Below are positions 4,230-28,100 of a DNA stretch of 64,000 bases, piece after piece. The stretch covers positions 248,001 to 312,000 of the forward strand of contig OZ237768.1 of the NCBI GenBank assembly GCA_965178125.1. The letters run 5' to 3'. Both the position numbers and the translations under genes were made by a program. Positions within the stretch are counted from its first letter, which is position 1. Every line of letters begins with the position of its first letter. Under the pieces are notes generated by a model, which did not search any database, was not told the DNA's origin, and saw only the letters and a list, made by a program, of their open reading frames with translations. Source of the DNA: Bilabrum cf. latius (Eukaryota).

Positions 4230-7200
4230 ATGTCGCTGATTATTGGGGATTCAAGCTAGGGGCGCTAGTGGGCGGCAAGCTTCTGCGCAGCAACTGGGCT
4301 CACCGTCAGCAGCACAAGGGAGCAGCGCGTGACCGCAGCAGGAGTGGGAAGTCTTCCGAAATGGATCGAACAGCTCGCGTTGCAGAGCACCCCTGAAGCG
4401 CTGAGATCTGCTTGCTCACTCGCTCTCTCGTTTGCATCGATCTGCCAGCTCCTGGTGGTGGCAGCTGCTGGAAGTGAAACAGTTCGAGCCGCATTTGCTC
4501 CCGAGGAGAGGCGACCGATGGATGAAACAAGACGGACCGACAGAGAAGAGAGCATGCGCGTGGAGCTGTTCTCCGTGCCTATCAGCCGACGCAAGGCCCC
4601 GTCTCTATCGGACTCAGGGGCACAGCCACCGCCGGCACCGGTACCGGCAGCAGCAGGTGCAAGTGGAAGTGCAAGTGCGGGGACTTGCCGCGATTTGCTA
4701 CACCGCAGGGCCGCCGATGCGTGCCGCTGCCTCGCAGCTCGGAAGGCGAGGACCTTGGTTGGCCTGCAGGCAGACCGCGTGGCTGCACTCGTGGCCAATG
4801 CAGACGAGCTGGGCAGGGACTCCAGCGAGGTACAGGCTAGGGCAAGGGCGGCCTTGGGCGCCACAGCCTTTGGTATCGGAGGCAGTGTTCTAAATGATGC
4901 CGACAGCAATGGTGCGCGAGTTCGTGCCGACGGCTCCGCTGTCTGCGGCGAAGGCAATCAGGAGCATGGCTGCGCGGCTGCGTGGTGGGAGTGCGTGCTG
5001 GCAGGCGCCGCTTGCCACGGATAGCTCTATGCAGATGAACTAGTGGACGAAGATGAAGGTCAATGTGACGGTGAATATGAAGGCCAATTTGAGCGCTCGT
5101 GTACTACTGGCGCAAGCAAGCTGGGCCAGGCCTCCATGGCAGACAACCCTTCAACGGTGGAGGCTGGCTCTGGCTCTCTTGACGACTCAATACGCGGGGA
5201 TGGGATTGCCAACAGTCTGTCCGTTCGCGCCAATGTCTGCCAGGCTGCCACCATTATTTGCTTGGACGTTCTGGCGAATGCGCTGGTGAGTTCAGCCCGC
5301 CGAGGGTAGCCCCCGTCGTCTGGTCAGGAGAGGCAGTCGCAGCACGATGGCTCGATGCTAGCAGCGGAGCAAAAAATGGCCGGCGGCTTGTCGTCCTCTT
5401 CGTCGTCCTCCAGCTCAATCGATGAAATTGAGGCTCGTGCGGTTGCACTAAGGCGGCTGAAGCTGAAGCAGCAGCGTAGGAAGCTGGCAGGGCTGATTGG
5501 CGCATCTAGTGGGTAGGATGGATCGGTCAGATCGTCCCCAGCACCTGCAGCATCAGCAGTGGCTGCAGGTGCACCTCGATCTACTTCAGGGGGCGAGGCA
5601 GGCGCCCTCGTCCAAGAAAAGTCGGAAAGCTTGGCGAACCATGCCCCCCCTTCTCTCTCTGACCAAGGGGAGGGTCGAGCTGATTCCAGCATAGCCTCAC
5701 CGATTGGGACGCTCCAAGCCGCAGCACCTGGTGCGGCCAAAGTATAGCAGTAGAAATGCACAAGCCCGATCACCGACTCAGATCCGCGCACTTCCGTGCA
5801 GTATGGCCTAGATTCAATGGAGACCTCTTTGCAGGAATCAATAGCCGAGACTCAGAGTGCCGCCATCCGTGGCATGCTCGGATGTACTGAAGCACGGACC
5901 GTCGTGGCAAAGCCCATCTCTCTGCTGGCATGGTTGGCGGTTCATCTAGCGGGGGCTCATCAACCAAACACGGAAGACGGTGATTCCTCGCATGCACAGG
6001 CAAGCGCTGATCTGGCTAGTATCGCAGATTCCTCAGGGCTTGGGCTTGGGCTTGGGCTGGGCCCCGCAGTCAGCCCAGAGTGCGTTCGTCAAGCGGAGAG
6101 CAGACTTTCCGGCGCTGGTCAATCACCACGCCGATCAACGAGGCGGGCAATGGGTCACTTGTCTATGGCTCAGACTCGTCTCGAGAGACTCGGTCAATGT
6201 GTTGCGTCATCCTTCCTTTTGCTGGCTTCTTGCTGTGATGGCCACGGTCAGCACAATGGCCATGATCCAGGCGCTGGCATGTCAGCTCCAAGTGCCGCCG
6301 TCGACCACAGGGGGCTTGATGATCACTCTCGCGCCCATCTCTCCAAGGATCGTTCGAGCATCCTCACTTAGATCTCTAGATTTGCCTCGTTTTCGCGCGC
6401 CTACTCTGACTGGATGCGGCATACCAGAGAGTGCGGGGTGCTGGCAAAGCAGCGCACCAAGACGGTGGTCAGAGCCGAGCTTCACGCGAGAGAGATAGCT
6501 GAGAAAGCCAGGCAAAAAGCCATGAAACAGGCTGTGGACCAGGCAGAGTTTGACCTCAAGCACGGCAGTGGCAAGGGGGTCGTGTCTACCTCCGAACAAG
6601 GCAGCGGCACCACTGTCGCGCCGTGGCGAGACCTCAGAGATCAGGCTGCGTCCGTTGGATAGAAGAAGCAGGAGTTCTCAGCGCAAGTTGCGACAGAAGT
6701 GGCGCTGGAACTGGCAGTCGCAGAGGTTTTTCGATTCTCTTCTGCGTGCCTGCTGAAGGCCTGCCTGCGGTGGTCCAAGGGTGCGGTGCAGGCAGAGCCG
6801 CGGCCTCGCGGGGGTCTCTCAAGCAGCGGCGTGCACGCCGGGAAACGAGGTACAAGCACCATCGAAATGATATAGGGGGCATCGGGCGAAGATATTCTTG
6901 GAGATGCATTGAATTGCGCTGCTATGGCTCCTGCAGCGGAGTTTGTCCCCCCTGCAATGAGCCTGGTGCGCCTCGCGACAACAGCAATCGCCGCAAGTCG
7001 AAGGGACCTGCACGCCGCATGTGCCCGCTGCTTGGGGCTGCTAGCGAGACAGGTGCATGGCACTGCAGTTGCTCGACTCACCGAGGGATGGTACGACCGC
7101 GGTTTCCCTGGACTGGAGCTATCCAAGGCATCGTCTGCTGGGGAGGAAGAGTCCCTCGCACCGTCCAACCACTCAGCGATGGAGGCAGGGTGCACGCGAC

Positions 7201-9770
7201 CGCTAGCCGAATCGGTCCCAACAGCCTCGGTGCACGTGCTCAGGCGACCCAGACCCTGTGTAGATGTCGCGATTCATTGCATAGGAGTGATGGGTTCTCC
7301 TTTTCGCGAGGACGCGGCAGCCGCAGTCGTCAATAGGGTGTTGCTTGCCTGCACCGGCTCCGCTTTCATGGGCCACGATGGCCGCATAACCCGGTTGTTC
7401 TAGATTGCAACAGGCGAGCATGCAGTTGCAACCGGCAGTGCGAAGGACAGCAGATCTGGCGCCAGCACGGCAAGCGTGCTGTCCTTCGCAGCCGACGGTG
7501 ATGCCCACATCTAGAGCCCAGGGCATTCCCTAGAAGCCTTGTCTGCTCTCATTTGTGGTCTCATCAGAACGTCTGGGTCGAGCGTATGCCATGCACCCGA
7601 AGTGCATTCAGAGAGCCAGGGCTCTAAGAAGAACGCATCAGGGGATTAGGAACTAGACACGGTCAGTCTCGCCATGGGACTGCAGTGCGGCCTAGACGCA
7701 TCGATGGCAGACTCCATCGGTGGACTGGCAACTGGCCTGTGGCGACTCCCGCCCGCTGGGTCATCAACCGCGGTGCTTAGCCCGCCTCGTGCCGTGGCCC
7801 TGTCCCCGCCTCGTAGCGGAGCAGCAGTTCTCATGGGATCAGCGAATGGGCGGTCCCAGTCCCACCAGAGCCAGAGGGACCCACGGGGCCGCGATGTGTC
7901 GGTTCGAAGCGCGTTGGTGCTGGCTTCGCTGTCATGCGCGGTATTGGAAGCCACTGTGGTAGTCGTCTCTCCCGGGTGTGTTGGGCTGCGATCCGATCCA
8001 GAGGGGCTGGAAGCAGGCTCACGTGCAGGCGGGGCCTCCGTTCAACCGCCCATGAAGCGAAGGAGACTTGGCGCCCCGTCAAATGCCGAGCTAGACCAAC
8101 AAGCGGGAAGAGCTGGCCGCGGCCGCGGTCGGGGCAGAGGTAGGGGTAGGGGAAGGGGCAGAGGCCGTGGCAAGGGCCAAGTGCGCTCTAGCGCCTCAAC
8201 TCCCACGCCATCAGCATTGAACGGCTCTACTCGCGTGGTATCTGCCGAATCCATCTCTGAGCTGGCCACGCCCACCCAGCTGCTCCAGCTTGGTCTCGGG
8301 CCGATCACGGTGTATCAGCTGCTGGACCTGGGTTCATAGGCTTGCCAGATGATGAAGAATGTTCTAGAATAGACGGCTGGCAGAAGCCGCGGCTCACCGA
8401 GTACCGTGGACCAGGAACCAGCTGCAGCTGCAAGCCGCCGTGCCCCTACCACAGCTGGTCTGGATGGAAGCGCGATCCGTATTTGTTCTCACCTCGTGAG
8501 GTGGGCGCTGTGGCAGGCGCAATCGTGGCTGCAGCCCATGGAGTCGTCTCTGGCCGTGCCGTGGCGCCGCGGCCTGGACGAAGGTTCTCTGAGAACCCTT
8601 CGCAGGCGTGCCGCTCGTTGCAAAGAATCGGCAAAGCAGCTGCACCAGGCGCTGTGCGAATACACCGGTGTTCGGGCGAGGATGTCGCTGCCGGAGGTAT
8701 GCATGCTTCAGAGAGTGCTGCGTCTCCTCGAAACTGACGTGGGCAAGTGGCTGCAGGCATCGCCAGAAGTCGACATGTATGGCGCGATGGTAGGCGCTGG
8801 CAGTGGAGGGCGCCATGGTAGCTTCAACTCTGACTCCCGGAATGAACGGCTGGGCGATGCCGGCTCCCGGGTAGTTGGCCGGCAGCTGGCGATGGCACGA
8901 GTGGCGCAGGCCATGGTAGATGAAGGATCAGAATCGATACCATCGCAGTCGGGAGGCGACGATGACACTGACCAAGCGGATGAGGATGATGAGGATGGTC
9001 ACGAGGATGAATGCTATCGTGGCGGGGGTGGGAGCGAGGACGATGGATCCATGTCTGAATCTGGGTCAGACTCAGGCTCAGATGGTATGGCCGCTGGATC
9101 TGTGAGAAATGAGGCTGGTATCGGCTCTGCCCTGAATGAACGCGGCATAGTGATGCATAACGGCAGCGATTCGTAGATCCGGATGACCGGTGCAAAAGGA
9201 GCTGGTGACTCTGGATCGCAGCATCACGGCCTGCTTGCCGCTTCGCTTGGCGGGCACAATCCAGGACCCACCCTATTTGGCAGCGAGCATGGCCACAGCC
9301 AGAGTGCATCCCCCGGTGCCCCCACCATGGGGGTGCCGGGGCTAGGCATGCAGCCTCAGCCTCAGCCTCAGCCTTAGCCTCAGCACCAGCACCAGCACAG
9401 CTGGTAGGGAGCCGGGTATGCCGGGCTGATGCATGGGCTCGTCCCCATGCCATCGATTCCCGCTGCGTCACCCGCGCCGGATAGTGCTGGAGGGATGCGC
9501 CTCGGGCAGGCTGTGATGGTGGCACAGCACGTGCACAGTCACGTGCACAGCCACTATCATGCAGGGAGCAGCTCCAGCTCGATAGGACCTGACTACCCGC
9601 GCCACGTTGGGGATGCAGCCCCCGGGAGCTTTGGCCGAGAGAGCATTGCGATGGGTGCTGGAGCAACTGGCAGTGCTGCGGGTGCCGCCCAGCAAGTTGT
9701 CGATATGGACGGGTTGCTGGCAGCTGCAGAGGCCCAGGGGTTGTTGTCTAGTGACAGTGATAGCGACTGA
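4230..9770 (+). CDS. Large (1846 aa) intronless low-complexity protein with RG dipeptide tract, acidic tract and QP/QH repeats; function unknown
   Basis: Track ORFs starting at 4329, 5043, 5559, 5796, 6414, 6909, 7674, 8406, 9183 and 9429 are all in one frame. Every intervening stop is TAG. ATG at 4230, TGA at 9768-9770. Confidence 0.8.
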
Positions 9771-9880
9771 GCAATCCATTTAGAAGGCTGCAATCACTAT
9801 CCTTCACTTTGTCTTGGATCTGCAAGTGCAGCGCACTGTCCTGATGTCATGTTCAGTCGCAATCACTTGGCTCCCAAATA

Positions 9881-10828
9881 ATGAATCGATTTGCATCCAA
9901 TCTGCTGAGAAAATCCGTGCGATACTTTTCTGCGGCTCCGCGGGCCGGGCCAGCACACGCTCTGGCAAATAGTTGCATCCTCGTCACTGGAGCTGGGAGC
10001 GGGATCGGCCGGGCAATTGTTGATCTAGCTTACAACTCTGGAGCACGCGTTGTTGCAACAGATCGCGACAAAGGATTACTCACTAAACTTAGCCGAGATT
10101 TAGAACCATCGACACCGGGAGAAAGTCAGCTGACCACAATATCGGGAGATGTTGCGAGTTCGCAGGATCGCTAGGCGATGATTGACGAAGCCTTGCAATT
10201 CGGGAATAGGCTGGATGGGCTGGTCAATTGTGCCGGAGTAGACTTTGGAAAGCCTTTCTTAGATACTAGCATGGAGGACTTCGACCGGGTAATCGACGTC
10301 GATCTAAGGGCAGTATTCGCCCTCACTCAGCTTGCAGCCAAAGTCATGGTAAAGTAGAGACCTAGGGAGCACCCAATTAATGACTCCCTGGTCATAAAGC
10401 AGCTCCCTTCCATCAAAGGTTCTATCGTGAACATATCATCTGTGCACTCGGTCGCTACCCTCCCAGGCGTGGCGCCCTACGCCGCTGCCAAAGCCGGTGT
10501 CGTCGGTATGACGAGGTCTATTGCGAACGAGCTGGCTCCCCTGGGCGTGCGGGTCAACACAGTGTCGCCCGGCCTCGTAGCGACAAAGATATGGGACGAC
10601 GTGCGCGCCGCGGCTCCCTCCAGGCTGGCAGCCCAGGAGCACTGGGCTCGGAACATACCACAAGGTGCGCCCAACACACCCCTCGAGATCGCGCAGGCGG
10701 TTTGCTTCCTCCTGTCACCCATGGCCTCTGCGTTTCAGGGAGCGAACATTGTTGTGGATGGTGGCATGACGTCTTAGCTCGTATCGCAGCCGCCTTACAA
10801 GCCGAAGCCACACGGCGCTGGGTCGTGA
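9881..10828 (+). CDS. Classical short-chain dehydrogenase/reductase (FabG-like), probable mitochondrial presequence (315 aa)
   Basis: Motifs TGAGSGIG, LVNCAG, SIVNISS, YAAAK, RVNTVSPG and VVDGG lie in one frame interrupted only by TAG at 10172, 10355 and 10775. Stop is TGA at 10826-10828. The N-terminus is Arg-rich (MNRFASNLLRKSVRYFS). Confidence 0.93.
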
Positions 10829-11007: not shown

Positions 11008-14000
11008 TCAGCAAACCGTTCAACAGGACCCCTCGCCTTCTTTGCGTCCCTCTGCTTCTAAATGTACACAGCCGCCATCAGTTGCAGCCGCAGCAGCCTC
11101 ATTACCATCGTCGCAATCGTTCGTTTCTGCTGCCGCCTCTCTGCCCTAGGCAGAACCTGCGCCATTTGAGGCGCACCTGCTCACCGCAGGACCTGACCTG
11201 CTCCTGAATATATCAGGAGCAGCATACGCTCTCGCGTAGGAAGTACGCGCGGAGAAATGACGCGCCGACGAGCGCCTTCGAGGCGCAAGGTTTCCAGACG
11301 TGCTCGAGGGTCTCTCCCCCTTCCTCTAGTAGATCTAGTCGTTATCTATGCCACCCTCATCACCGAACTGTGCCATCAATCCAGCACGCCGTCTCTGGTC
11401 CCTGCTGCGGCTTGCACTATGCTTATGGCTCCCGCTGTCGGACCTACCCCGCTCCCGCGCTGCCGCTGACCGCCACCCCAAAGGAACCGACATGTTATGC
11501 TTGACCCCTGCCCGTAGACGCCTTTCCATACGCTTGTCCGGCCATGCCTGCACGGCCCGGCGGGGGCCGATCCCCACAGCGGGCCCACCTACCGTCCCGG
11601 CAAACACTCCGCTGCCCCTCTGCCGACCATCACCCCCAGCATCGCGCTTGTGCCGGGGCATGAAACCGGATACCCTCCTCGGTATTGTGCTCCCAGCTCC
11701 GCCCGTGGCCGCCATCTCTGCCCTTGCCTATGAGTCGAACAGCCTCCCACTACTGTGCTTGCCACCAGCCGACAAATTGGGGGCGCTGGGGGCGGTGGGG
11801 GCGGTGGCGCTCTGCCTCGCTAGCTCCCGCCTGTGCCTCTTGCTGGCAAATGAGGGATTGCGCCACCCTACGCCGCCGAGTGCTCGAGCCCTGTCCTGCT
11901 GCTTTGCAATCGCCGCGGCAGTAACGCGCGCCACAGCAGGCTGCACCTGCGACCGGTGGTGTCTGTGAGACAGGTGCAACCTATGGAAACTCCCGGATGG
12001 ATCAGCGGGTCGAGTCTCAACCTCTATCTATCGGTGGCTGCGAGGCTCCAGGGAACACGCTCCTGGGTGCACGATGCAAGACTCCACCAATCCCACTGCA
12101 TTAACAATGCCTCGGCGACCGCCACTGGTTCTCAAACGGCCACGCGCCCTGAAAACAGAGCCAGCTTGCAACTGCACCCGAAGTAGGGCAAGCGACACCC
12201 TGAGCTCTGTGAGCACGACAGTGCGCTGCAGTCGGAGATCGTGACCGACTGGCTCGATCACAGGATGCACTCCTGCGGCCTGCGTACCCAAAGCTTCTTT
12301 ACCCCGAAACAGGCGCGTGTGCCAGGGCACAGTGTCGCTGGACTGGTCCTGCAAGGCAGCTGAAATCGTCCCAAGCGGTGCCACGAGCAGCCCATCCCCC
12401 GGCAGCAGCTTGTACGTGCTATAGCATGCACCAACTACATCTCCTAGCACTGCGTCCGCTCCTGCTCCAGACACAGGCGCTTGGCTAGCCTCAGGTACAA
12501 CCCTACTGTTGAGCCGCACTTTCCTCTCGTCCTTCGCAAAAATCATCCCGGGAATCGAGCGCCATGCTGGCCCGCCCAGAGCAGTATCTGCCATGGACAA
12601 TGAGCTTGAATGATCGTGCAGATCATCGTCACGCCGCATTCTGGTGCCTCTGTCTCGCGTCTCCAAGAGGAGGTCGGTTTCCCAGGCAGCCGCTTGTGTC
12701 GCCCACCGCCAGGTGCATGCGCCCACAGAGGCCGCCAATGCTGCATGCTCTGCCTCCTTCGTGCGAGCATCGCTGACACTGCTTGGTAGCTCAATTCTTC
12801 TAGCCTGATTGCCTGGTGCTGATTGCTCGCACAAGGCTTTTCTAGTTGCCCATTCTGCCGCGTGCAGCCTGGGCCCACACATGCTACTTGCGCTTCCGCC
12901 AGATAATGGGTCGCTGCTATCGGACGATACAGACGACATCGCGCCTGTCCAGGACCGCGTTGGCATCGCGCATACCCAGTGGGTGCATCCAATTGCGTGC
13001 CTGTTCCAGGCAGCGCGCGATCCAGCCCAGCCACACTCAGGTGCAGGGCATTGCCGTGGCGCCAGAAGACAGACCTAGTCATGGTCTCCCTGGAGCTCTG
13101 CAAAGATTGCTCCTTGGGACGTTTGGTCTGCATGCTTCCCTCCGAGCTCTCCATCTATCTTCAGTGACAGCCAGGCACCACAGCCGTGCCTGCATGCTGT
13201 GCCTGTACTTGCTTCAGGGGGTTTGACACCACTGGCTCTGTCGGGCAAGCCTGTACTCGTGCCACTCTCCTTCACTGCCGGCGAACAAACTCCTGCATGA
13301 GTGCCCATCACGTCGCTAGCTGACGTTTGTACACCCGTAGGCATGTCCTCAGGTGGCCTAAATCTGCCTATGATCCCAACAGATCGCAGTGATTGTTCCA
13401 GCGACTGCCCGGCTTCGTGGCTGCCACCAGACATCGCGGCACTCGTCACACCCCTGAGGTCAACCGCACGCAGCTGCCCTGCGCTGCCACCAAGAAGCAC
13501 ATCCACGACGCCCCGCAGTACCGCAATAGACCCGAATGGCGCCGCTAGGACTCTGAGTCGAGGACACGACTCGAGAAGCTCCCCAGCCCACTCGGATCCG
13601 CAGGACCTCCACCCTGCACTGGAGAGCGAGGGGCTCTTTCGGGCATGTCTGCGCATCGATCTATTGCTTCCTTCGTCCATTAAGGGGCCCGTGGATAGCC
13701 ATGGCACCGACAATCCGACCAGCTGCTTGCACGCTGCCAGAGCAACCGACAGGGACACCTGATCTGCTCTGCAGCAGGACCTCGGTAAGGCCAGCGTCTG
13801 CAGGCCAGCGCCAACGCTACAAACACAGGTATCAGAATGATGAAGACCGCAAGTGGTCTAAATTTGGGCTGAGCTTTGAGCCACAGAAGCGCTGTGACGG
13901 CTTTCCACTCCAGCTATGTCACCGCCATGTGACGGCGTGGTCTGCACCTGCAGCTGCAGCAGAGTGGCAAGTCCGTCTGTCCCCAGTGAACCCTCCGACA

Positions 14001-15561
14001 GCCGACTCAGGTCAAGGTGCCGCGGAGCAGGATCATTGCATGGTGCACCTCCCCTCCTCTGCTCATGGCACAATGACGCTCTGCACCGCAGGAATGCGCC
14101 AGCCCAGTGCCTTATGCTCTCGGTGCTCCACACATCCCTGGCTCTCACTCTCGGGGGCAGCCAGCCGTGAGCTAGCGCAGCTGCCCTGTCACGAGCAGCT
14201 CTATCATCGGTATCGAGCGAGAAGGATTCCTACCTCTGTTGCGCCCTCGCTCTGGCTCCTCCAATACCCTGCGCCTGCAGCAACAGCCCATCCCTCCTCG
14301 CTGCTCTTCTGGCTCGCCAGGCTCGCCTGGCAGACTGGTTTCTCGCCCTCGCTGCCTCAAGCGGGTCTTGCTTGTCGTCAATCACCAGCGACTGCAGCTG
14401 ACTGCAGCTGCCCATCACGTCGCACATGACGGCCCAGGCCGGCTGAAGCAGTGCCCGCCGTGGTCGCAAATCGCAGCGCACGAGTCCTAGCGCACGGAGC
14501 TTCCGCAGGATGCGACGAAGGGCCGCCCCCCTCACAGAGCACAGCTGGGTGTCGTGCAATCGCAGGGCTTCCAGTCGAGGCAGTCCGGACAGGGCAACTG
14601 CGCCTGATGGTCCTAGTTGTGACAGCGACAGGTACTTGAGAGACTGGAATGACCTGACGTGCCACGCCCTCAGCAGCACGCTGTCTCCGGCTTCGAGGCA
14701 GCGCAGGCTGGCTGCGAAGCGGGGGCACGCGATCGCGCGCTTTGCTGGGAGCAATCCTGATTCCTTGTCGCCGGCACCCCTCGCTGCGTTACTGGCTCTG
14801 TGTCCCCGAGGCGCACTGGATCTTCTCTCGTCCTCATCATCCATGTCGTGCGCTGGGTCAGATGCAGGTCCACCTGCAGCTCCTCTGCTCCAGCACGCTG
14901 AAAACTTGAGGCGAATCAGCCTGTCACTATAGGCGCGCAGTTTCCTGCACATATGGTCGCACGCTTGGGGAGTCAACTTGAAGCTGCTGCCCGTACTAGA
15001 AGGGGTTGGAGTAGGGCGAGCAACGCTGTGCATGGGCGCCTTCGGGCTTGATACCACCCTACCACTAGCCAACGGTCCAATGTCCGGCTTTGAAATTGTG
15101 CCATCCGTTTCACCGGTCCCAATTCCGTCCAACTGCGCCGCAAGTCGCTCCGCCTCTCGCTCTTCAGCCGTGGAGTGCGCGCTCATATCCTGCCCGACCT
15201 CCCAGCCGACAGCAACTCTCCATCGAACCTCCGACACACCAGCGTCGCCACCTGTTAGTGGCAAACCTGTACGCTTGCTACATCCGCTGATATCCAGTAC
15301 TTCAACTCTTGCGCCAGTGTGGGTGAGAGCCTCAAGGTTCTGCTAGTCGATGACATCACTTGCCATTCCGGCGAAACACGCTACCTGACAAACGGTTGAG
15401 CTGGGAGAATAATCTTCTGTTTGATGGTATGCATTGATAGAATGCGCATATAGTGAGAGTTTGCGGCCCAATACTAGGCGAAGACTTCGAGACGTGCCTG
15501 CCAACCTCTCGAGCGACAAACGATCAAGCCAGTCCTCAACGAACCTTACAGCCCGCAGCAT
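11008..15561 (-). CDS. F-box/LRR-like protein with degenerate RNI-type leucine-rich repeats (~1517 aa)
   Basis: Track ORFs 15343, 14230, 13858, 13075, 12028, 11728 and 11335 share one frame joined by TAGs; stop is TGA at 11010-11008. LRR-like segments include SLKYLSLSQL, LPRLEALRL, CSQLQSLVI, RHLDLSRL, CPRLRVL and LRAVDLRG. The N-terminus (WLDRLSLERLAGTSRSLR) is F-box-like. The start is uncertain. Confidence 0.65.
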
Positions 15562-15805
15562 GGTCTTCAATTTGATTGCAACCACATCTCTCAGCGCTTT
15601 TGGCCGGAGTCCTATTGGGGACGTGTAGACTACAAAATTGGCTGTCGAATATTCTGGGCGTGGATGATGAGCATGGTGTGCAACTGCAGCTCATCATCTC
15701 CGGGGCCATTTTGACGCAACAACTGGACCGAGACAAGACAATTCTTCAGGTATTATTTTTCCTGGAACTCATACGGGCATCTTGACCTCTGCGATACCAC
15801 TTGCA

Positions 15806-17808
15806 ATGCTGAGTTTCGTAACGAGACTGGCAGCTGCCGGGTGGCTCGTGGGATAGGCTCTCTCGAAACCAGCCCATCCCCACCTGGTCGTGTTCGTAGC
15901 AGACGACTTGGGCTATAATGATCTTGGATTCACAAACGGCGGCAAGACGCACACGCCATACATCAACGAGCTCGTGAAGGAGTCTACGCTTCTCTCCAAC
16001 TACTACCAGTGGCGGCTTTGCTCGCCCAGCAGGGCGTCCCTTCTGTCGGGACGGTACCCGTAAGAATATTTGAAGATATAGAATGTGTCGGTTTGTGCTA
16101 CCTTGGAAGTTTCGATGTTCCTGAACGAATCGTCACCGGATCCACCCCACGGCAACTGCGTACGCAGATGGGGTGTTGGATTTTATGACATGTCTGACGA
16201 TGGAGCGCATTGTATCAACGAAAGTAAGAGGTATGCCTGTGTCCTTTTGTCGACCGAGGCACACGGCACTTGCGGAGAGTTGAATCCTTCTGTATTCTCA
16301 AATACGCGCAGCCACTCGCTTGATGCCCGATGTACTGAAAGATTTCGGCTACAAGACGCACGCCCTTGGGAAGTACGACGTTGGTAGGGTCCTTAAGAGC
16401 TGCACGGCCACCGAGCGCGGCTTTGACACCTTCCTGGGCTACTACACTGCCTGCACGAGCGACTACTGGTACCACGGGGCTCCCGGCGGCAACCGCACCG
16501 CTGACAATTGCGGCGGCGTGGACTAAACCGAGGCGAGCGTGCAGGACGGCATCCGAGGGGCGCCCATGAGCGGGCCCGACTCGCTAAACGGTACGTACGA
16601 TCAAGAAGTTTTCACCCGTCGGGCCATGGACATCGTGAGTGAGCACGACGCAGACGAGCCCATGTTCCTCTATATCGGGCACCATGTGGTGCATGACACC
16701 TGCCAGCACAGCAGGACAGAGGGAGCAAAAGTGCTGCAGGCCCCTTGCGGGGACGTGGATGCCTATGCCACCACTGAGCTGGACGGTTGGAAGGTGCAGG
16801 CAGCCATGACCACGCAGCTAGACTACGGCGTGGGCAATCTGACAGAGGCGCTCAAAGCCAAGGGCATGTGGGATGACACGGTGTTCCTGTTCGTGTGAGT
16901 GACTGGGACTAATTGATTGTTTTCGGGCTCGCGATGGGGCTTACTGGCCGTCGTCATGCCGAGCCAGCACTGCATACTCTATCCATTGCATTTTTGCTGA
17001 CACCCTCCACCGACCGATGGATCGCAGGTCAGACAACGGGGGCCCGTTGGACCACTCCAGCAACTGGCCACTGGCCGACGGCAAGGCAAGCTGGTTCGAG
17101 GGCGGCCTTAGGGTCACAGCGTTCATCCACAGCCCGCTGCTGGGGCCCGGCATGCAGGGCGTCACCTGGGACGGGATGGCCCACGCCAGCGACTGGTACA
17201 CCACGTTCGTAGAAGGGGTCATCGGGGCGCAGCTGCCCAACAACACGGGTCCCCGCGCGCCGGACGGGCACAACCTGTGGGATGCCCTGAGGAACAACGG
17301 ATCTTCCCCTCGACAGGAGATCATCCACGGCGTCAACGGGTCGTGGGTGGTGCCCCCTATCTCCCATGAGGACTGCCCTGGGTGCAACGAATTCGCGGCC
17401 AGGTTCGGTGACTGGAAGGTCATCTTCGGGGTGAGGGAGGGCAAGGGCCCGCAGGCGTGGCCCGAGCCGGGGCAGTCCGCAGTGCCGTTTGGGAAGACCG
17501 GTGGCGAGGTGGAGGAGGGCACGGACCACTGCAGGGCCCCGCTGCTGAAGACCACCGCGAAGGAGACCAAGTCCCCCGACGGTGTGTGGCTGTTCAACCT
17601 GGGAACCGACCCCGGTGAGACACAGAACCTGGCGGGAGACCCCAAGTACGCCAGCATGATCGAGCAGTTCAGGCAGAAGATCAAGGAGGCCAGTGCCACG
17701 GGTCCCCGGGCGGCGTTCCTGAAGCCTCCCAACGCCACTGAGGTCATTTGCGACAACGAGAAGAAGTACGGCTACCTAGAACCGTTCGACTGGAAGCCGT
17801 AGCCTTGA
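15806..17808 (+). CDS. Secreted/lysosomal formylglycine-dependent sulfatase (family S1, arylsulfatase B-like), 4 exons
   Basis: Exons 15806-16059, 16168-16223, 16312-16894 and 17028-17808, with GT-AG introns that restore frame. Motifs: VADDLGYND, CSPSRASLLSGRYP (CxPxR), GKYDVG, RGFDTFLGY, VSDNGG, GKASWFEGGLRV, LFNLGTDPGE. TAG at 15854 and 17800 is read through; stop is TGA at 17806-17808. One in-frame TAA at 16524-16526. Confidence 0.9.
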
Positions 17809-18049
17809 TGCCTGCGGGCGCGATGCAGAGATTAATGCAGTCTTTGGTGATGATGCAATCCGGGATGTGTATTGGCCACAGGCCCTGGCTAGATCCAGAC
17901 TGTGCCATCTGGCTAGATCCAGATTTGCGTAGTCTGCCGTAGTGGATATCAGAAGACTACACCATTAAGCTTAGAAAGCTAATACCCTTGCGACTTATAA
18001 CTATAACTTATAAACAAGCATGCATCGATATAGTTCAGATCATCGTGGG

Positions 18050-19256
18050 TCATAATTCTACCGCAGCCACCCCGAATTGCTCCTGCTCTCTTGTGGGCAG
18101 AGGACCACCAAAAGCGGCACCAGCACCTGCGCCTGCACCAGACCGCATTACGGTAGGGGGCCTCAGGGAAGGCTGAGCCTCAGCCCACCTGTCCAATGCA
18201 TCTCGCAAGGACACGGGCGGAAGCTGCGCATCGTGCGCGCCAGTGACTCCCGCAAGACAAGCACTAATGCCAGCTTGCCTCCATCCTGCGAATCCCCCCT
18301 TGGTGTTTGTCAGCACATGCGAGGCTCTATCAAGGGAGGCATACACCGAACTGACCGGCTCGGGGGCGTAAATTCGACGCGTGCTGGAGGGCCCAGAACT
18401 CTTGCCTGGGCTGCTGCTCTCAGAGTCCGAGTCAGTGTCCATGTCCCCATCTGAATCGGAGCTGCAGCTGGACACGCTCGCGCAGCACTCGTCGTCACTG
18501 CGCTCGTCACACTGGCCGTAGGATTTACCCACTGGCTCGTACACGCTGTTTGCCCAGCTGCGCACACTGCTAGCCCCACTGCTGCTTGGGCTGCCGTGGC
18601 TGGGCTCCGACGCTTTGCTTTCGCTGGTGCCTGCCGTTGATTTCATATGTTGTTGATTGTAACGGGTGTGGATGCCACCACGTGTGACGATGGTGACTTC
18701 GTTGGGTGGTTGCTCCGTCTGGGCAGACTTGGCCTCATCTTCCTCCCAGCAAGCTGCGGAAGTGGGCCGGACCATATCTCGATTCGTGCGGTTTCGCCGT
18801 GCAAACGCCCTCGCCCTACGCATCTGAAGGATCTTGGCTCGAATCTTTACGGCATGCTTAGAAGTTCGCTTGGCTTCGCGTGCGTCGGCTCGCTGTTGTG
18901 CTCTCTCCTGCTTGCGCTCGACGGGTCCCAGCAGCGCCGCTGGTGCCAGGCCCTGGGCTCCTCTAGCTAAAGTGCCCGTGCGCATGCTGCGCGCGATGCG
19001 TGCCAGTGCCACAGATGCACTGCACGGTGGTACGTGTCCCCGTCTGACGCATTGCACTGCGATGATCTGGTCAAGGGAGCGACCCAGCCGGGTGTGGCCT
19101 GCGAGAATAGCCGCCATACCGGGGCTGATGCCCTCCTGCGAGCTAGCAGCGAGATAGAAGAAGCACTGAAACAGGCTAGGATACGATATGTCATAGGATA
19201 ATCCTTTATAATGTGAAAGGCGCGGTAAGATAGCGCTTAGAGAGGCGGGAAACGAG

Positions 19257-19301
<45 letters not shown>

Positions 19302-20434
19302 TGTCAGCAGTACTGCGCCTGAACAGCCGGAAATTATCGGCGAGCAGCTCTAGCAACAATGCCCAGAAGCGTGCACCTCACCGCATCGCACTCGTCACAC
19401 GAAGCTCCTAGCGACAGGAGAGCCATGCATCCGGGGGCATCCCCGCTCCAGGCAGCGTGCCACATGGCGCTTCTCCCATGCTGCGGGAATAGAACGAGAC
19501 ACGTGAACGCATAATTTAGGCCTTATAAGCGTCATTATCAACTAGATGGCGGCAATACGGATAGATTAGCACCCGACTGAGCCTATTTTCAGCGGTTTCA
19601 CCCATGCCAAGCAAGTGCTCACTTCGTCCGTCTGATTCACCAGCTCCAGGTGGGCCGACGTCTTCGCCTCTTCAGCGCTTTTGGAGCCAATGTCGTCACT
19701 ATTGGGGGCTGATGTGCCGCGCAGAGACTGCGCCACTGCCGCCTAAACGAGCAGCGCGATCTGCCTGAGGTCCCTGGCCCGGATGGCGGCTCGCAGCGGG
19801 GTGTCGCCGTCCTTCGAGATTTAATCGTGATTATATCGGACAAAAACGCATAGGGTGGATATTTTGGTACGTTTATTCATCATCACGGCTTGGAATAACG
19901 TTTAACGTTTAATGCATGTCTCTGTTCTTGGTGGATGGCCAGCTCCACCCAAGCATGTCTCTGTTCTTGGTGGATGGCCAGCTCCACCCAAGCATGTCTC
20001 TGTTCTTGGTGGATGGCCAGCTCCACCCAAGGCGCTTACCCGCCGCCCAGCAGGGTGGGCGACAACCTCAGGGATCGTTCTAGTTCAGCGGATAGGTCGT
20101 ACGTATAATCCTTGCTCACCTTGCATCGCAACCCGGGGGGTACACCTGCCTGCAGCAGCTTGGCCAGCGTTTCGTCGTCACCAGACGCAGCTGCCCGGAA
20201 CAGCCTCGTTGCCTCTGGGGTGCATGCGAGGTGGGCTTGCAATTCCCGGCTATTACTTGTGATGTGTGGGGCAAAGTAATCGTGGTGGGAAAGTGAGTAG
20301 AGTAGCTGCCTGTTGATCGGTGGGAGGGTTGGCGCCAATCGGTTGATAGCCGTTGGATGTGCATCCGTTCTCCTTGTCTTGATTGGGGCGCGAATTCGGG
20401 CGGGGTGGGCATTTATTTTCACAAAATTACTCAT
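18050..20434 (-). CDS. Ankyrin-repeat protein with long low-complexity C-terminus (~562 aa), 4 exons
   Basis: Exons 20434-20120, 19811-19623, 19480-19382 and 19135-18050, joined by phase-0 GTGAG...AG introns. The product contains ankyrin-like units LFRAAASGDDETLAKLLQAG, DGDTPLRAAI, HGRSAMWHAAWSGD..CMALLSLGA and EGISPGMAAILAGH. In-frame TAG at 19745-19743; stop is TGA at 18052-18050. The start codon is tentative. Confidence 0.8.
19257..19300. repeat. (GGCT)11 microsatellite in intron 3 of the ankyrin gene
   Basis: Read directly from the sequence. Confidence 0.97.
19914..20030. repeat. Three identical tandem copies of a 39-bp unit (minisatellite) in intron 1 of the ankyrin gene
   Basis: Unit GCATGTCTCTGTTCTTGGTGGATGGCCAGCTCCACCCAA x3 with no spacers. 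Each unit has an internal inverted repeat GGTGGA-N8-TCCACC. Confidence 0.95.
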
Positions 20435-20469
20435 AGTTTATGTCTTTGGAGGCGCGAGTTTGGCGCCGG

Positions 20470-21351
20470 ACATGCGTGAGAGTTTTGTGCCGAAAACGCT
20501 TGCCGTGACAAGACTTGGCGCGAGATGTATGTTCGCGGTACAACCTGGAACGGGCCAAGAATAGTTGTTTCCAGTGAAAACTAGGCACGAGAACGAGAAG
20601 GACAGGGGCCTCGGGGGGAGAAGGTTTGCTGTTCGGGGCGTACTCATTGGATGGGGAGAGTACGGCTTGTTGAGGTTGCTTGCGGAGGTCCAAGGGAGAG
20701 AGCAACTGCTGCACAGGAAGTTCGTGTAGCACCTATAACGGAGGAAAGGTGAGCGAGTGAAGGTTTTCAAGGGGACCAGGAAAACCAAGAAGGAACGTGC
20801 GGTTGATGCGTTGCAGGTTGCGCGGAGACCGCGGAGATTGTGGTGCGGGGTAACAGGGGCGAGAGGCAACTGGCCGGGTTGGGGATACGGCCAGGTGGGC
20901 TGAAGCAAGGGGCACTGGGTGGGTGTGTCTTATTTGGGCTGTCGATGGGCTGTCTTATGAGAGATCGGCAGCACTGAGGGGTTCTGCCCGTAGGCAGGAT
21001 TGTTCGGGACCTATTCCGGAGGAGTGGTGAAGATGTGGAGGCATATCAGGAGACAGGGTATGTCAGGTAGGAGCGTGTGGGCTATAACCAGCGAGGCACT
21101 AGATGGATGGGGAGGCCATTTATGGCGAACAGAGAGAGTGTTTGTGGGGTGGTGAGTGTTTCGTGGCTCGCGGAGAGTGAGGTGAGGGAGTGGGGAGTGT
21201 GGGATCTTGTTAGGGCCGGTGCAGTGGGGCTTGCCTCGCTGTATACGGTTGCGGACGAAAGTCCACCGTCATGGTCATGCTGTCTTTGCGCAGCACCCAT
21301 TGTTCGGTTATGCTTGACCTTAAATCAGATTTCAGATTTCAGATTTCAGAT
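20470..21351 (+). mobile_element. Possible decayed, 5'-truncated non-LTR retroelement relic
   Basis: The + strand is strongly G-rich and C-poor, unlike the flanks, with broken reading frames. The segment ends in a short tandem (CAGATTT)~3-4 tail at ~21326-21351. No recognisable RT motif and no target-site duplication were found. Confidence 0.25.
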
Positions 21352-22146
21352 AGTGCCGTCCTGCGGGAGTAAGACAATTGGACAGTGGGGGCTGGTGAAC
21401 CTTGCAAATTCAAATTTTCGTAGACTTATTATAGTCTTTGTGTTTGAGTTGCGTTTCGGCCATGGTTTGTAAGTAGCTACAGTGAAGGTCCCATTTGCTA
21501 CCCTTCCACGGAGGCATGCCGCGACTGCACGATAAAATCCCAGTCAACGCCTTCTAAGCCAAGCAAAAAATATGACAATACAATTAGTAGCAGATACAAC
21601 CCTGCCCATGGCATGATTGCGCGAAGACTCGCAAACTGAGCAAGTGCAACTAGATGGAACCGCCTAGAATTTGCCATAGTTTGCACCAATGACTACCTTT
21701 ATACCATACATACAAAAATATGATACATACCTCTTGTCTAGCCAGTGACCGGATGAGGTCCACGTCACTAGGCGGCTGTTCCTGCCTACTTTGCCAAGTG
21801 TGTCGGTGCTCGCTCTGGATTTTCACGTACTTTGGAGGGCGTTGCAGCTATTTGCCTCGGTTCATGCCACTATTTTGATGCTTGGTTGACATTTTCGAAG
21901 CAAGCATAGTCTCATTGTTTCTTCCCATGCTTGCTATGTGATGGTGAAATCCTGTGCAGACGAGCCGGGCTGAGCGGAACCTTCATGGAAGTTCGCTGAG
22001 TGGCGGTGGTCGCAGCACGGAGTCGTGGGCACTGGCATGGAGCAAAATATACAATCACATTGCGTTATTCAAATGAGAGTAGTTCGTAGTCCATACGCTT
22101 TTAACGGACTCCAAGTTTGCAGCCATTGTGCTACACCTGACGGCAA

Positions 22147-25100
22147 TCAGCGCAAGCCTCCCTGCCTCGCCAGCCGCTCCGCCTCCATGGCAGCGATCCT
22201 AGCCTTGGTCTGCCGCACAAAATGAGCAGCTCTCTGCTGGAAGGACTCGTCCAGCACCTTCTGCTTGGCAGCAAACTCTGACTTGATTCGAAGCATCTCC
22301 CGCCTCGTCTCCAAGCGCCTCTCCTGCACCTGTGCATTCTCATCGCTCGTCAAAGAAGCCAGCTGGCTGCTGGACTCGCGCTCCAAATCGCGCACTGCTG
22401 CCTGCATGTCGGCAGTGGCTGCCGCCAGCTGATCCTCGAGCTCTTGTACGACAGTCTTCTGCTTTCGCAACGCAGACGCAGACTGAGGCCCCTCTGGCGC
22501 GGCTGCCTCTACCGCTCCATCGCCCTTGCCGCCACCGCTGAGGCGCGACAGCTCCCCCTTGGCTTCCTCGATGCGGTCAACCAGGCGTTGCTTGCGCGCA
22601 TTGGCCCGCTCAAGCGCCTCGCGCTGCTCGCGCTGAGGCGACCCCTGCGCATTGGCCGCCCCGCCTCCTGTGCCGGTCCTGCTCTGGCTCTGGATGAAGT
22701 CTCGCAAGCCCGCCTCGGCCTCCCTTAACCTGATGTCCCTTGCGTCCCGCAGCCGGTCCCTCTGCTTCTAGAGCCTACCGCCCTCCTCCACCAGCTGCAT
22801 GCCCCGCATGCGCAGCTCTCGCGTGTAGAACCAGTCCTCTGCCGGCTTCAGCTGCTCGGCAACGTCAGCGAGCTCTTGCCTGATGCTGCTTGCGTGCATC
22901 GCCTCCCTGTCTAGCATCGATTCGCGGGCGACCATCGTCCAGCGGCGCATGAGCGCGGCACTCGCTGCGCTTAGACCAACAGGACCGAATCGCCTAGCCT
23001 CGGGAATCCTGGATTTGGCATCCTAGTCGAGCTGGGACCCGTTGCCGCCGCGCCGCAGAGCCTCAACCTCTCGCATGGCGTGCGCCTTGGCCGGATCCAC
23101 GTAGTCCTAGCCCAGGGCCTACGCTCTCCTCTTGGCAATCTGCCTCTTCGCACGAGCTGCCTGCCGATCGCGGAGCTTGGCGGCGAACGCTTCCATCTCC
23201 AGCTTGGCGTTAGGCCTAGGAAACTCCCCGCCCAACCGGATCCGAGCCGCGATGAGCCACTTCGACATGAGCCGTCCCCAAGGGGCGTTCCTGTCCACCG
23301 TGATGGGATCGAATATCGGGGCCCCGTCGTATCCCTCAGAATCGCTGCCCTTGTCGCGCGCCTGCTGCTGCTCCCGAGCCGCCCTGGCATCGGCGCCGAA
23401 GAGTTTCTCCCGCCGCCTGCGGTTCGCAGCCGCAGTTTCCTCCGCAGCGCACCTCTTGCAAAGCATGAAAAACTCGGCGTTAATGCGGAAGTAGGCTCGC
23501 CAGGCGTCGAAGGTCATCGTCTGTGGACTGTCTCTGTTGGCCCTCTCGAACTGCTCCACGAGCTGATCCATGGCATGCGGGTCCAGCTGGCCGTCTGTGG
23601 CTAGTCGCACTTCGATCGGGTTGCTCTCGTCTTCCCTACACTTGCAGCGGCTGCACGTCTTCTCCTTGGAGTTTGCCATGATCTCTTGCACAGCGTTACG
23701 GAATAGCTTCCTCCGCCTTGCTTTCTCTAGCCACCAACGAGCGAGCGCGGCACTTCGCTCACCGGGCTGGGCCGCATCTGCCCACTGCCTGAGCCTCGTC
23801 CGAACCCCGTCGTCACCCGAGTCATCGCTGGAGATATCTTTCCGCCGTTGCCTTCCTCCGATGGTGCCATCTCCGTCATCGTCGAAGAAGTTAGACGTGA
23901 TGCGGCCATATACTCCACGCACATACTCTCGAGTAGGATCGCCATCCGGCTAGAGTGCATCCAGCGCCCTGGGCGTCAGCAGCTCAACCAGATGCTGCAC
24001 CAACCACGGGCGGTTCCGAGCCAGCCACTTGTGCCTGAATCGTTCGGAATTCAGGGCACGCAGCTCCAGCCGCTCCTTCTCGAGCTCCTCGTCCCCGCCC
24101 TCCCCAATGGCGAGCCTTGCAGCCACCTCATCATCGACCGTGCCTTCTGCCCTTACTAGCTTCCACAGCTGCACTGCGTTTGCAGCCTTGATCATGGCCC
24201 ACCGCAGCAGCACCCCAAGGAGCCACATAACGATGAAGATAAATCCAAACATGACATCGGAGAGCATTACGTAGTCTTTGCGGATCATGATCGTAACGCC
24301 CAGCATGATAAAGAGGATGCCCCACGCATGAACAGAGGACATGAAGTAGAACTGCGTGCTGAAGTACATCGAGTCCATCTGCTGCAGCTTCTCTGTTACG
24401 GCCTGGTCCCGCTTCTCGCTCGACATTTGCCACCTCTTGTCTCGAACAAAGTACCTGTACTTCTGGTAAGACAGGTACTCGTACAGCTTCCAGCCGTGCA
24501 CCAGCTCGAGCGTGTTGAACAGGAACATGTCCATGGCCAATTGCGCCGGGATGATGAGGAGAGTGAAAACCGTGTAGAACACGAGGTCAGTCTCGCGGAT
24601 GGAGAACCCTTCGGGCACCTCGGTCACCTGGAAGGAGTGCAGTGGGCTGGCGTCAAGCAGGTACAGAAGAACCTGCAAGAACGGTGACACGAGGAGTGCC
24701 ACCGTCTCGTTCGAGTATACCACCATGCTCTCGAGGAGAGGCTCCACGCCGAGGGTCTCTAGCTTGATGTGGTCCAAGATATGGTTGAGTTCTTCCTCCT
24801 CTTTGAGCCGCTGATCCCTAGACAGCTTCTTTTTGCCGCGCCACCATATGCTGAGCTGCTTCCGGTACAGCGGCACACGGGCGTACACTGATTTGACCAG
24901 GGGATCAACGTAAATCCGCTCGACCGTCATAGCCGCCGCCTCCACGAAGAAAGCAACGACGAAATCGGTGAACGTGGCTGCACCCATCGTGATCATGATC
25001 TCCACAAGCTGCAGAGTGGACACGAGAGGGCATACCAAGAGAGCGTCGCCCATGATCTCAAGCAGCACCAGCTCTACGCCGATCTGAGCAAACTTGAAGC

Positions 25101-28100
25101 CTACGATAAAAAAGTACTGGTACGTCGCAAACGTCTCAGAAAAGGCGAATTCGAGGATGGTGAGCAAGATTGTCACCAGCGTTAGCGATATCAGCAGCAT
25201 GTGAGCCCTCCTCCACAGGATGGGGGTCCACAGCTCCTCCGCAGCCGATGCTTCAGCTTCCAATTCCTCCTCGTCCTTTTCCTCCAAGTCTCCTAACTCA
25301 CCAGACCTTTGTTTCTCGCGGATTCTATCCGCCTGTGCACCCTCATCCTGCTCAACCTCCAACCCGGTCCGGTCGTTGGACGAGTAGATGGCATCGTCGG
25401 TCTTCCACCTGTCCCCCTGGTGCTCGGGTATAAACATGGACACGCCTTGTGCAACCACGTACAGGCCAAAGCACATGAAGGCAGTGCCCATCCTTCCTTG
25501 CCTGTACAACTGTATTCGGTCCTCGTCGAGTACAGCGATATCCATCCAGTCTCCAGGGACTGCCTCCAACGCGATCATGGACGGATTGAGGACTGGGTCT
25601 GCGCTACCGAGGTGCACAAACCAGATCAGCACAAAACCAAGGCCCATCATAGCTGGTACGGATGCGTAAAGTGCCCCAAAGAGTGGGGCTGGCGTGACCA
25701 TCTCCCACAACTGAGAGAATCGAAACACGGGGGCTTTCTTGAGCCTTGTGCCGATTCGGTGGACTGCCCAAATTAGGGCCCCGATGCCAACTTGTAACCC
25801 TCCAATGATGATGAACAGCAGGACATACACATCAGCGCTAAACTCAAACAGATTCAGCAAGTCCATCCAAGCGAGCGGGCTGTACGTGAACTCGATCGTG
25901 TAGTTAAAGTCACCTTGCTTGCATTGGGGTATGCCCTGGGCTGCAAAGTCTGCAATCAGGCTCTCTGTAGTTGCAGACGTGCAGAAAGAAGAATATTCTA
26001 CGAATGATCGCACCAGCCGCTTTCGGCCCTTGGTCACCTGATAGTACTCCAGGCTTAGCTCGATCACCCGCGGAACTCTGTAAGGCACGTACGAGCTGAC
26101 CACGTCAACGGGAATCATCGCCTCAGTGCCTACCAGATCCAGCAGCTAGTCCGTCCGTCCCCATCCCTGGTTCGTTTCCGAATCGCCTTTGAACGTAGAG
26201 AATGGAAGTGGCTCCTTGGTCAAATAGAATAGCACGTCACCCTCACGGAACTCGAACCACCGCGACAGGGGTGCCTGGTTGAAGATCTGCTCCTCGTACG
26301 CACATTGCAGGCTGATACCGGGAGGTCCTCTGCCGTCGTTGTCGTCCTCGGGGTGCGGCTGCCAGGACTGGTCAAAGCAGCGATCTGCAAGCGGCGTAAA
26401 CTGAAAATTCCAGAAATACTAGTTGACAAAGATCGTCTTGTCATACGGCTCGATCACGCACTCTGGGTGGTCCTCCAGCAGCTTGGAAACCAGCATCCTC
26501 GAGTCGTACCCCTCGCAGTTGGAGAACCACGGGAAATAGTTGAAGAATAGTGCATCGATTGGCTCTTCGTCTGCATTGGTCCACCACGTGACGTCCTGCT
26601 CCACGTCAACGATCGCGTCCCGCACGATGTCAAAGTATGTTTGATTCCTGCTGTTCCTGGGTACGTACGCTGCATTGGCAGCTGCCAAGTCCACGGTATC
26701 CGCACCAGTGACACGCGCCGTCTTGACGGCATACTGTTTATCCCCAACATTGTAATCAGCCGGTCGATCAAGAAATAGTTGGTTTTCGAAAGCCTACTCA
26801 AAGTCATTGGCCGTGCCTTCGACCCTCCGCTTCGACATGGGCAGGTTGTACGGCAGGCTCTTGCCAGTCAGATCTTCGAGAGTAATGAGGGCGAAGAAGC
26901 CCCTGCCATTCGAAGAGTCCGAGGGAGAATAGTCCGCCCTTGACGGCGTGTGGATAGTTAACTCAGTGATGCCCCTAAGCTACGTTTTGAAATCCTAGTA
27001 GTACAGCCCGTGCAGCAGCTCAAAGACAATAATCACGTTCATATCCTGCAGCGTAGAGACTGTCAGCTGCACTACCTTGTGTTTGTTATCTGCAAATGGC
27101 AGCTCCCTTTTGTTGGTTTCAAGCCAAGCGGGGTTCTCTTTTGCCTGGCACTTGCAGCAGTCCTCGCACATGTACCCAAACCCCGCCTGGTCCTCCACGG
27201 GAGGATGCGAGCACTGGGGCGGATCCAAGGCATACTGGCACCGGTAGTGCGGTGGACATGGGTCGCAGTCCGCGTAAACGGAAAGCTGGAAGTGCTCGTT
27301 GTATGTGAGGTTGGTTGGAATGACTGACATATCCATTGTCACAATTGCCTGCTACCCACCCCGTAGCTCGAGAACCCCAATCCCCCAGTCTGTCCGGAGA
27401 TAGGCGTCTGCAAGCACTTTCCTATCGGTCGCATTCGTGAGGTAGATAGGATCGATGGGGCTAATCCTCTGGAGCACCTCATCGCCTCGCTTCTAGCAGT
27501 CAAAGAGGTTTGTCGATGACACATCGCTGGTTGTGCCGTTGGGGCACCTCATCGCATGTTCGCATCGGCACATGTCCAGCCTCTCTAGCATGGGCTCGTC
27601 CACCTGTTGGCTGCCCACGACGCCGTCTCGCCACGAATCGCTTGGCATGACCAGCTTGGCCAACTCGGGCACGTCGTCTCGAAGATTGTAGCGATCGTCG
27701 TCTCCCAACTCAGATCGATCGTACTGCCTCACATTGTCAAGCAAATCCACGGCATACTTGAGGTCGTACACCAGCGGGTCCATCGACTCGGGCAACTCCT
27801 GCAGCTTGCGAGAAGCGGTTCGCTCGACCTCGTCCAGGTACGCCTGCTCCACCCACTCCTTGAGCTCTCGGAAGCTGCAGGTGGGCAAGCAGGGATCGCC
27901 CATTGGTAGCGTATCTGGACCCCCTGGGTTTCCCTGCCCCAGTCGCGCGTCACATCGCACGAATGTCCCCTCTGAGTACGGAGTGAATGTGGCAGACGAA
28001 GGCTCGAAGCAGTTCCTAAAGTACCTTTGGGCGAGGTGCTGGGGGGGAAACACCACGGCCTCCTGCATGAGAGGTCCGGTGCCGTTCGAAGAACCTGCTA

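Follow-up and report, generated by a model that had tools for sequence, protein, structure and literature searches.

Background

Nuclear genetic codes in which UAG is uncoupled from UAA are described as rare in the report on Iotanema spirale (PMC5304391). According to this report, only UAG has become a glutamine codon in that organism, UAA still acts as a stop, and the tRNA carrying the anticodon CUA is unable to read it. A different departure has been described for a ciliate code that assigns distinct amino acids to UAA and UAG (PMC10553269). Here we describe a single in-frame TAA codon within an arylsulfatase B-like gene of the eukaryote Bilabrum cf. latius, located on a stretch of 64,000 nt (assembly GCA_965178125.1, contig OZ237768.1, positions 248,001 to 312,000 of the forward strand), which in its full length is called the window from here on. 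We lean towards regarding this codon as a recent nonsense mutation in a sulfatase gene of which transcription continues and which shows no other decay, a reading that appears probable if far from secure.

Results

The sulfatase gene and its in-frame TAA

The spliced coding sequence consists of 1674 nt, i.e. 557 codons followed by a TGA stop codon, and is distributed over four exons between positions 15806 and 17808 on the plus strand. Exon 1 (15806..16059), the end of which is set by the joint 16059>16168 in contigs of the sequencing runs X5 and X6, begins with the ATG and encodes the signal peptide, the sequence VADDLG and the formylglycine motif CSPSR. It is followed by intron 1 (16060..16167, 108 nt), by exon 2 of 56 nt (16168..16223), which was found in contig pieces of X5 and X6, and by intron 2 (16224..16311, 88 nt). 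Exon 3 (16312..16894, 583 nt) encodes the central sulfatase domain, carries the TAA codon and was delimited with the help of PF00884, the structure 1fsu and the X5 contig. Intron 3 (16895..17027, 133 nt) may sit up to 2 nt further on, and exon 4 (17028..17808) contributes, as judged from its translation and from Pfam, the motifs SDNGGP and GK..EGG and the Sulfatase_C domain. All three introns begin with GT and end with AG, and their joints occur in the contigs of both X5 and X6. Two TAG codons of the gene are read as sense, as throughout the window: codon 17 within the signal peptide (15854..15856) and codon 556 (17800-17802), the latter followed by CCT and the TGA stop codon (17806-17808).

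The TAA is codon 175 (16524..16526) and the sole stop within exon 3, where the frame reads ...NCGGVD-TAA-TEASVQDGIRG.... It was located by the contigs of X1, X5 and X6 and by the alignment of homologues, in which it takes the F/L position of the motif CGG-[VI]-D-[F/L]-x-[DN]. A first-pass annotation had singled out a lone in-frame TAA in an otherwise intact sulfatase, and this description holds: the codon is the only TAA among 17,760 in-frame codons of the window, and the splice joints of the gene were confirmed in X5 and X6. A frameshift of +1 or -1 at the TAA was also considered and was rejected; homology resumes immediately behind the codon without a change of frame.

The codon in genomic and in spliced contigs

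Contigs from the public sequencing runs X1, X5, X6 and X7 were compared with the window over positions 15700-17900. Runs X1-X4 belong to one sample in which the whole stretch is present and which is possibly the window's own source, X5 and X6 are rows of a different study with 0.80 and 0.45 of the sampled words present, and X7 spans 17254-17798 only, outside the TAA site. In X1, a single collinear DNA contig covers the region with 0 differences to the window, TAA included. X5 is represented by one contig of 1936 nt starting at 15723 (depth 15.6) and X6 by several short contigs, and in both of them the 108-, 88- and 133-nt GT..AG introns are spliced out. The segments 16312-16894 in X5 and 16312-16594 in X6 are continuous, with 0 other letters and 0 gaps, and both keep the TAA.

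None of the runs is recorded as RNA, and X5 carries the label 'RNA? (probably DNA)'. We took X5 and X6 to be derived from RNA, given the three GT..AG joints in their contigs and the mRNA size of the X5 contig; if X5 should be DNA, it would represent an intron-less copy that still contains the TAA. The TAA codon is real in DNA and in mRNA, and it lies inside the coding sequence. Its presence in the spliced contigs of X5 and X6 therefore leaves hardly any room for a micro-intron, a base-call error or editing at this site.

The first of these had been proposed in the first-pass annotation as an in-frame micro-intron of 27 nt at 16518-16544, the splicing of which would remove the TAA. The candidate segment has to be placed at 16519..16545, with GT at 16519-16520 and AG at 16544-16545, and its terminal dinucleotides as well as its length, divisible by three, would suit an intron. 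It is retained in X5 and X6, whereas the real introns of 88-133 nt are removed, which refutes splicing of the segment for the main transcript. Moreover, its nine codons encode the conserved V-D-F-x-D-S motif, and we give this explanation practically no credence. The proposal that the window contains a sequencing or assembly error fared little better. Nothing speaks for it beyond the oddity of a lone stop, and the contigs of X1, X5 and X6 show the same letters at the site and 0 others, X1 being possibly the window's source and X5 and X6 stemming from the different study; such an error is very improbable.

The only difference between the X5 contig and the window is an extra 24-nt repeat unit behind position 17884, in the 3′ untranslated region (UTR). 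At 17861-17910, the window contains this 3′ UTR unit once together with a partial copy, while X5 has one more, a length polymorphism between the sources.

Conservation of the sulfatase on both sides of the TAA

The gene encodes a type I sulfatase (PF00884) of the arylsulfatase B (ARSB)-like kind, with the frame interrupted at codon 175. Type I sulfatases are expected to have the formylglycine motif C-x-P-x-R and an N-terminal Asp-Asp. Both are present in the translation of exon 1, in the sequences VFVADDLGYNDLG and LCSPSRASLLSGRYP. The Pfam Sulfatase profile PF00884 matches exon 1 at 2.7e-10 and exon 3, with the TAA read as X, at 3.2e-15, and the match of Sulfatase_C to exon 4 (3.1e-06) is under the curated cut-off (28.2 vs 30.9 bits). 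Human ARSB (PDB 1fsu) aligns with exon 3 at 5.7e-23 over residues 86-256. The downstream catalytic His, Asp-Asn and Lys residues are kept as well, in HHVVHD, which aligns with SVHE of 1fsu, and in SDNGGP and DGKASWFEGG of exon 4.

One catalytic position differs from the human enzyme. Positions 16371-16388 read GKYDVG, in which the Lys is kept and the His of ARSB (GKWHLG in the 1fsu alignment) is replaced by Asp. All 22 rows of the alignment, which consists of the window sulfatase and its 21 closest homologues, have this Asp of GK[WY]DVG. Because the homologues share it, the change from His to Asp in GKWHxG is, as judged from the alignment, a trait of the clade and not a sign of decay.

The closest named homologues, from Salpingoeca urceolata and Stephanoeca diplocostata, share 52-57% identity with the window sulfatase. 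Judged by its relatives, the sulfatase belongs to a clade common to choanoflagellates and uncultured marine eukaryotes, an affinity by which the genome itself is not placed. Scanning contigs of prokaryote genomes with the alignment of the sulfatases yielded 4 pattern matches, 0 of them a relative.

The TAA site in homologues

A search of a large protein collection with exon 3, among the longer proteins, yielded 81 matches at E <= 1e-10, of which the best 60 were aligned. The residue preceding the TAA is Asp in 60/60 of these best homologues, and the column of the TAA is occupied by F in 33, L in 23, W in 2, M in 1 and I in 1 of them. Among the 21 closest homologues, at 51-62% identity, there are 20 F and 1 L. 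The expectation of the first-pass annotation that a hydrophobic residue follows the Asp is borne out by the 60 homologues.

A metagenome scan returned 18 loci, 13 of them with a match that spans the site. Phe, encoded by TTC or TTT, stands at this position in 11 of the 13 and Leu (TTG) in 1, while the remaining one is a misaligned distant locus (38% identity). From these comparisons, the ancestral codon was most likely a Phe codon (TTY). The path from TTY to TAA requires two changes, via TTA (Leu) or via TAY (Tyr).

TAG and TAA in the coding frames of the window

The G+C content of the window is 53-62% in 2-kb bins. Nine open reading frames (ORFs) or exons with together 17,760 in-frame codons contain 176 TAG, 0 TGA and 1 TAA, which is codon 175 of the sulfatase. 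When TAG is read through, the sum of residues in ORFs of at least 200 amino acids rises from 15,038 to 33,175; with TAA read through instead, it reaches 17,060. The longest ORF, at 22150-56934 on the minus strand, has 11,595 codons with 127 TAG, 0 TAA and 0 TGA and ends with TGA. TAG is not depleted in its frame, where the 127 instances compare with 137 and 118 in the two off-frames. For TAA, 0 instances in frame stand against 64 and 48 in the off-frames, and for TGA 0 against 186 and 340. TAG clearly serves as a sense codon in all parts of the window. In-frame TAG codons also occur in the ORFs 3813-9767 (+), 11023-15690 (-), 59541-62036 (-) and 9845-10825 (+).

With regard to the meaning of TAG, one instance takes the place of Q in a (QP)n repeat (QPQPQPQP-TAG-PQHQHQH) and others stand within KQ-TAG-TAG-QAP. 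In a gene for an SDR domain protein with 3 TAG, the alignments place T/E/T/R and A/Q/N opposite TAG. From these placements, TAG probably specifies Gln.

The same cannot be said of TAA. The ratio CAA:CAG among the 17,760 in-frame codons is 0.43, and the ratios of other NNA:NNG pairs range from 0.2 to 1.3, with 0.20 as the lowest. Even at an assumed TAA:TAG ratio of 1:5, the probability of finding at most 1 TAA among 177 such codons is 3e-13. The first-pass annotation had noted that Gln would not fit at the site, and this was substantiated, F or L being needed there and TAG apparently meaning Gln. Because of this misfit at a strictly hydrophobic site and because of P = 3e-13, TAA is here neither an ordinary sense codon nor a synonym of TAG.

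Alternatively, UAA might have been captured as a rare sense codon that is served by a tRNA of its own and differs in meaning from UAG, standing for an aromatic or aliphatic residue at this position. The invariantly hydrophobic character of the site, at which Gln as the apparent meaning of TAG misfits, would agree with this, and a ciliate precedent for split meanings of UAA and UAG is described (PMC10553269). Against it, an established reassignment should recur, while 1 TAA was counted in 17,760 codons compared with 514 Phe, 327 Tyr and 176 TAG codons. A scan for tRNA genes over the 64-kb window gave 0 hits, so that no such gene is encoded in the window, and the probable orthologue in the metagenome contig L006 has TTC. 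We consider a dedicated tRNA for UAA unlikely.

A related metagenome contig

Contig L006 is the closest metagenome match. Its sulfatase shares 74% identity with that of the window, the G+C content is 56% and TTC stands at the site of the TAA. Just upstream of this sulfatase, a 1002-codon ORF contains 10 in-frame TAG and ends in TGA; it matches the window ORF 3813-9767 with 31-32% identity (E 1.7e-38). The residues opposite TAG in this comparison are N, A, R, P, V, D, E and Q, which, like those in the SDR alignments, are polar in character and agree with Gln. Because the TAG-bearing ORF beside the sulfatase is homologous to the window ORF 3813-9767, L006 is a relative that uses TAG in the same way and has a related gene context, and its sulfatase is probably the orthologue. 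As L006 has both in-frame TAG codons and a homologue of 3813-9767, the regions 1-3006 and 4001-4378 of this contig indicate that the TAG-sense code extends to a wider lineage.

Nonsense mutation or a codon that no longer terminates

The first-pass annotation had offered four explanations for the TAA. With the micro-intron and the base-call error set aside, a nonsense allele and sense decoding of UAA survive, and the window favours the former. A nonsense allele is favoured because TAA is otherwise absent from the coding frames of the window (1 TAA vs 176 TAG). Nowhere else in the window does a TAA stand between two coding segments of a genuine gene. On this reading, the organism, which decodes UAG as sense and probably as Gln, would not use UAA as a sense codon. 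The TAA would be a genuine premature stop in the germ-line DNA of a gene that continues to be transcribed and correctly spliced. A Phe codon (TTY) may have turned into TAA in two steps, through Leu (TTA) or Tyr (TAY), and translation would mostly stop after residue 174, leaving a truncated product with half of the catalytic residues missing. One member of a sulfatase family would in this case have lost its function recently through a nonsense mutation. We infer that UAA ends translation here and that the gene is dead or dying.

Several observations weigh against this reading. Columns conserved in at least 19 of the 21 closest homologues are kept in 45/47 cases upstream of the TAA and in 88/95 downstream of it, and the identity ratio (query to homologue divided by homologue to homologue) is 0.92 on each side. 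All splice sites of the sulfatase gene are used, and apart from the TAA there is no sign of decay. The stop-bearing mRNA was assembled in full length, although the distance from the TAA to the last exon junction downstream of it is 370 nt. Stops in such a position usually trigger nonsense-mediated decay. The TAA further appears to exist on at least two haplotypes or strains, because X5 differs from the window by the 24-nt repeat in the 3′ UTR. Finally, the ORF or gene ends in the window, some of them belonging to ORFs without a family match, are TGA in 10/10 cases and TAA in 0, and the one end of the ORF on L006 is TGA as well (1/1). Hence, among these 10 window ends and 1 L006 end there is no positive evidence of UAA terminating. 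Because the conserved columns, the identity ratio, the splicing and the mRNA speak against a long-dead gene, either the mutation would be recent or the codon would be tolerated.

Toleration would mean that UAA is a poor terminator or none, that UGA is the sole working stop and that a near-cognate tRNA, for Tyr or Gln, reads UAA, giving a full-length and possibly active sulfatase. UAA without a cognate tRNA would then be an almost unused codon, as where both UAR codons have left the set of stops. The exclusive use of TGA at the 10 gene ends of the window and at the one of L006 would fit such a state, as would the intact sulfatase, equally conserved on either side of the TAA, and the mRNA, spliced and assembled in full length in two runs. 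Tyr would suit a position occupied by F, L or W, and a single step separates TAC or TAT from TAA. The tRNA for Tyr is also named as a known readthrough-inducing tRNA for UAA and UAG (PMC8136774).

This possibility, which we regard as distinctly the less probable, meets several objections. The gene ends are few, not all of the ORFs are verified genes, and TGA is commoner than TAA in the window anyway, by 3.8x (trinucleotides TGA:TAA 1880:496), so that 10/10 TGA ends have P ~0.1, which is weak either way. UAA is reported to remain the main stop in the UAG-only code of Iotanema spirale (PMC5304391), and the account in PMC8136774 puts natural readthrough usually under 0.1%. No signal for programmed readthrough was found at the TAA, and the base after the stop is A. 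The region 16515-16630 (116 nt) folds with -34.2 kcal/mol compared with a shuffle mean of -40.4 (z = +1.64), and 190/200 shuffles fold at least as well.

In a broader form, UGA could be the only true terminator, UAG would mean Gln, and UAA would be nearly vacated and poorly recognised by the release factor, being decoded most plausibly as Tyr through a near-cognate tRNA, or else through a dedicated one; this combination we entertain only tentatively. If it were true, UAA would be a codon caught between the loss of its stop function and a new sense meaning unlike that of UAG. In a code that has separated UAG from UAA, the well-expressed sulfatase mRNA with one UAA at a conserved internal position is a natural reporter of ribosome behaviour at UAA. 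If the TAA is a plain nonsense allele, as we prefer to think, it would merit an annotation note only, on one young sulfatase pseudogene.

Other features of the window

The 11,595-codon ORF at 22150-56934 (-) is intron-less and encodes IPT/TIG domains (1.8e-20, 1.9e-15) and ephrin-receptor-like Cys-rich repeats. Its C-terminal region is hydrophobic and membrane-like, it has a charged, coiled tail, and most of its length lacks a Pfam match. The ORF 3813-9767 (+), of 1985 codons and also without a Pfam match, contains 26 TAG and runs of (GR)n and (QP)n/(QH)n; with 31-32% identity to its L006 counterpart it appears to be fast-evolving.

At 59541-62036 (-), a gene with 4 in-frame TAG encodes a PCIF1_WW domain (1.3e-51), a family to which the cap-adjacent m6Am methyltransferase belongs. 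The neighbouring multi-exon gene at 62041-63998 (-) encodes a right-handed beta-helix protein and ends with TGA at 62041-62043. In this gene, an exon junction reads ...GAC C|TA AGC..., and a TAA in the genomic frame arises only from unspliced sequence. The TAA-ended frame 62982-63998 (-) was accordingly rejected as a gene end; its TAA (62979-62981) closely follows a GTGAGA donor and is intronic, and later exons continue the gene.

Between the sulfatase gene and the longest ORF, a threefold tandem repeat is located at 19886-20100, one frame of which translates as ...AWVELAIHQEQRH x3. The 1.5 kb around it (19.7-21.3 kb) contain many TAA in all frames and no family match, and the bin 20001-22000 has a strong G-over-C skew of 0.21.

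Comparison with known systems

The window sulfatase shares CSPSR, DD, GK, VH and SDNGG with ARSB (1fsu) and with the ARSB-like clade of choanoflagellates and marine protists. It differs from ARSB in that its frame is broken by the TAA and in the GKWDVG of the clade compared with GKWHLG.

With regard to the genetic code, no G+C-rich non-ciliate that combines UAG = Gln with TGA ends only was found in a limited search of the literature, which is not proof of absence. The code described for Iotanema spirale (Panek et al. 2017, PMC5304391) resembles that of the window in so far as in-frame TAG is common and compatible with Gln and TAA is excluded from the frames. It differs in that UAA is given there as the predominant terminator, whereas 0/10 gene ends in the window are TAA. 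Moreover, the window has a high G+C content (53-62%) and encodes proteins that are unlike those of fornicates, and its TAA is located in an exon and not in a retained intron.

The split code of the ciliate (PMC10553269) is the sole kind of precedent that we can cite for a meaning of UAA unlike that of UAG. The report describes many in-frame codons, in contrast to the single TAA observed here, and by its G+C content and its introns of 88-133 nt the organism of the window is not a ciliate.

Near-cognate readthrough of premature stops by the tRNAs for Tyr or Gln, as treated in PMC8136774, likewise concerns a UAA placed midway along an mRNA that could otherwise be translated, and Tyr would be acceptable at the site. 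The window lacks a leaky context or downstream structure, and basal readthrough in the systems cited there is <0.1%.

The TAA may finally be compared with a young unitary pseudogene or a segregating nonsense allele. In the window, the altered set of stop codons makes the effect of UAA uncertain, unlike in such cases; what the sulfatase has in common with them is a single disabling change in an intact, spliced and expressed gene that belongs to a multi-copy enzyme family.

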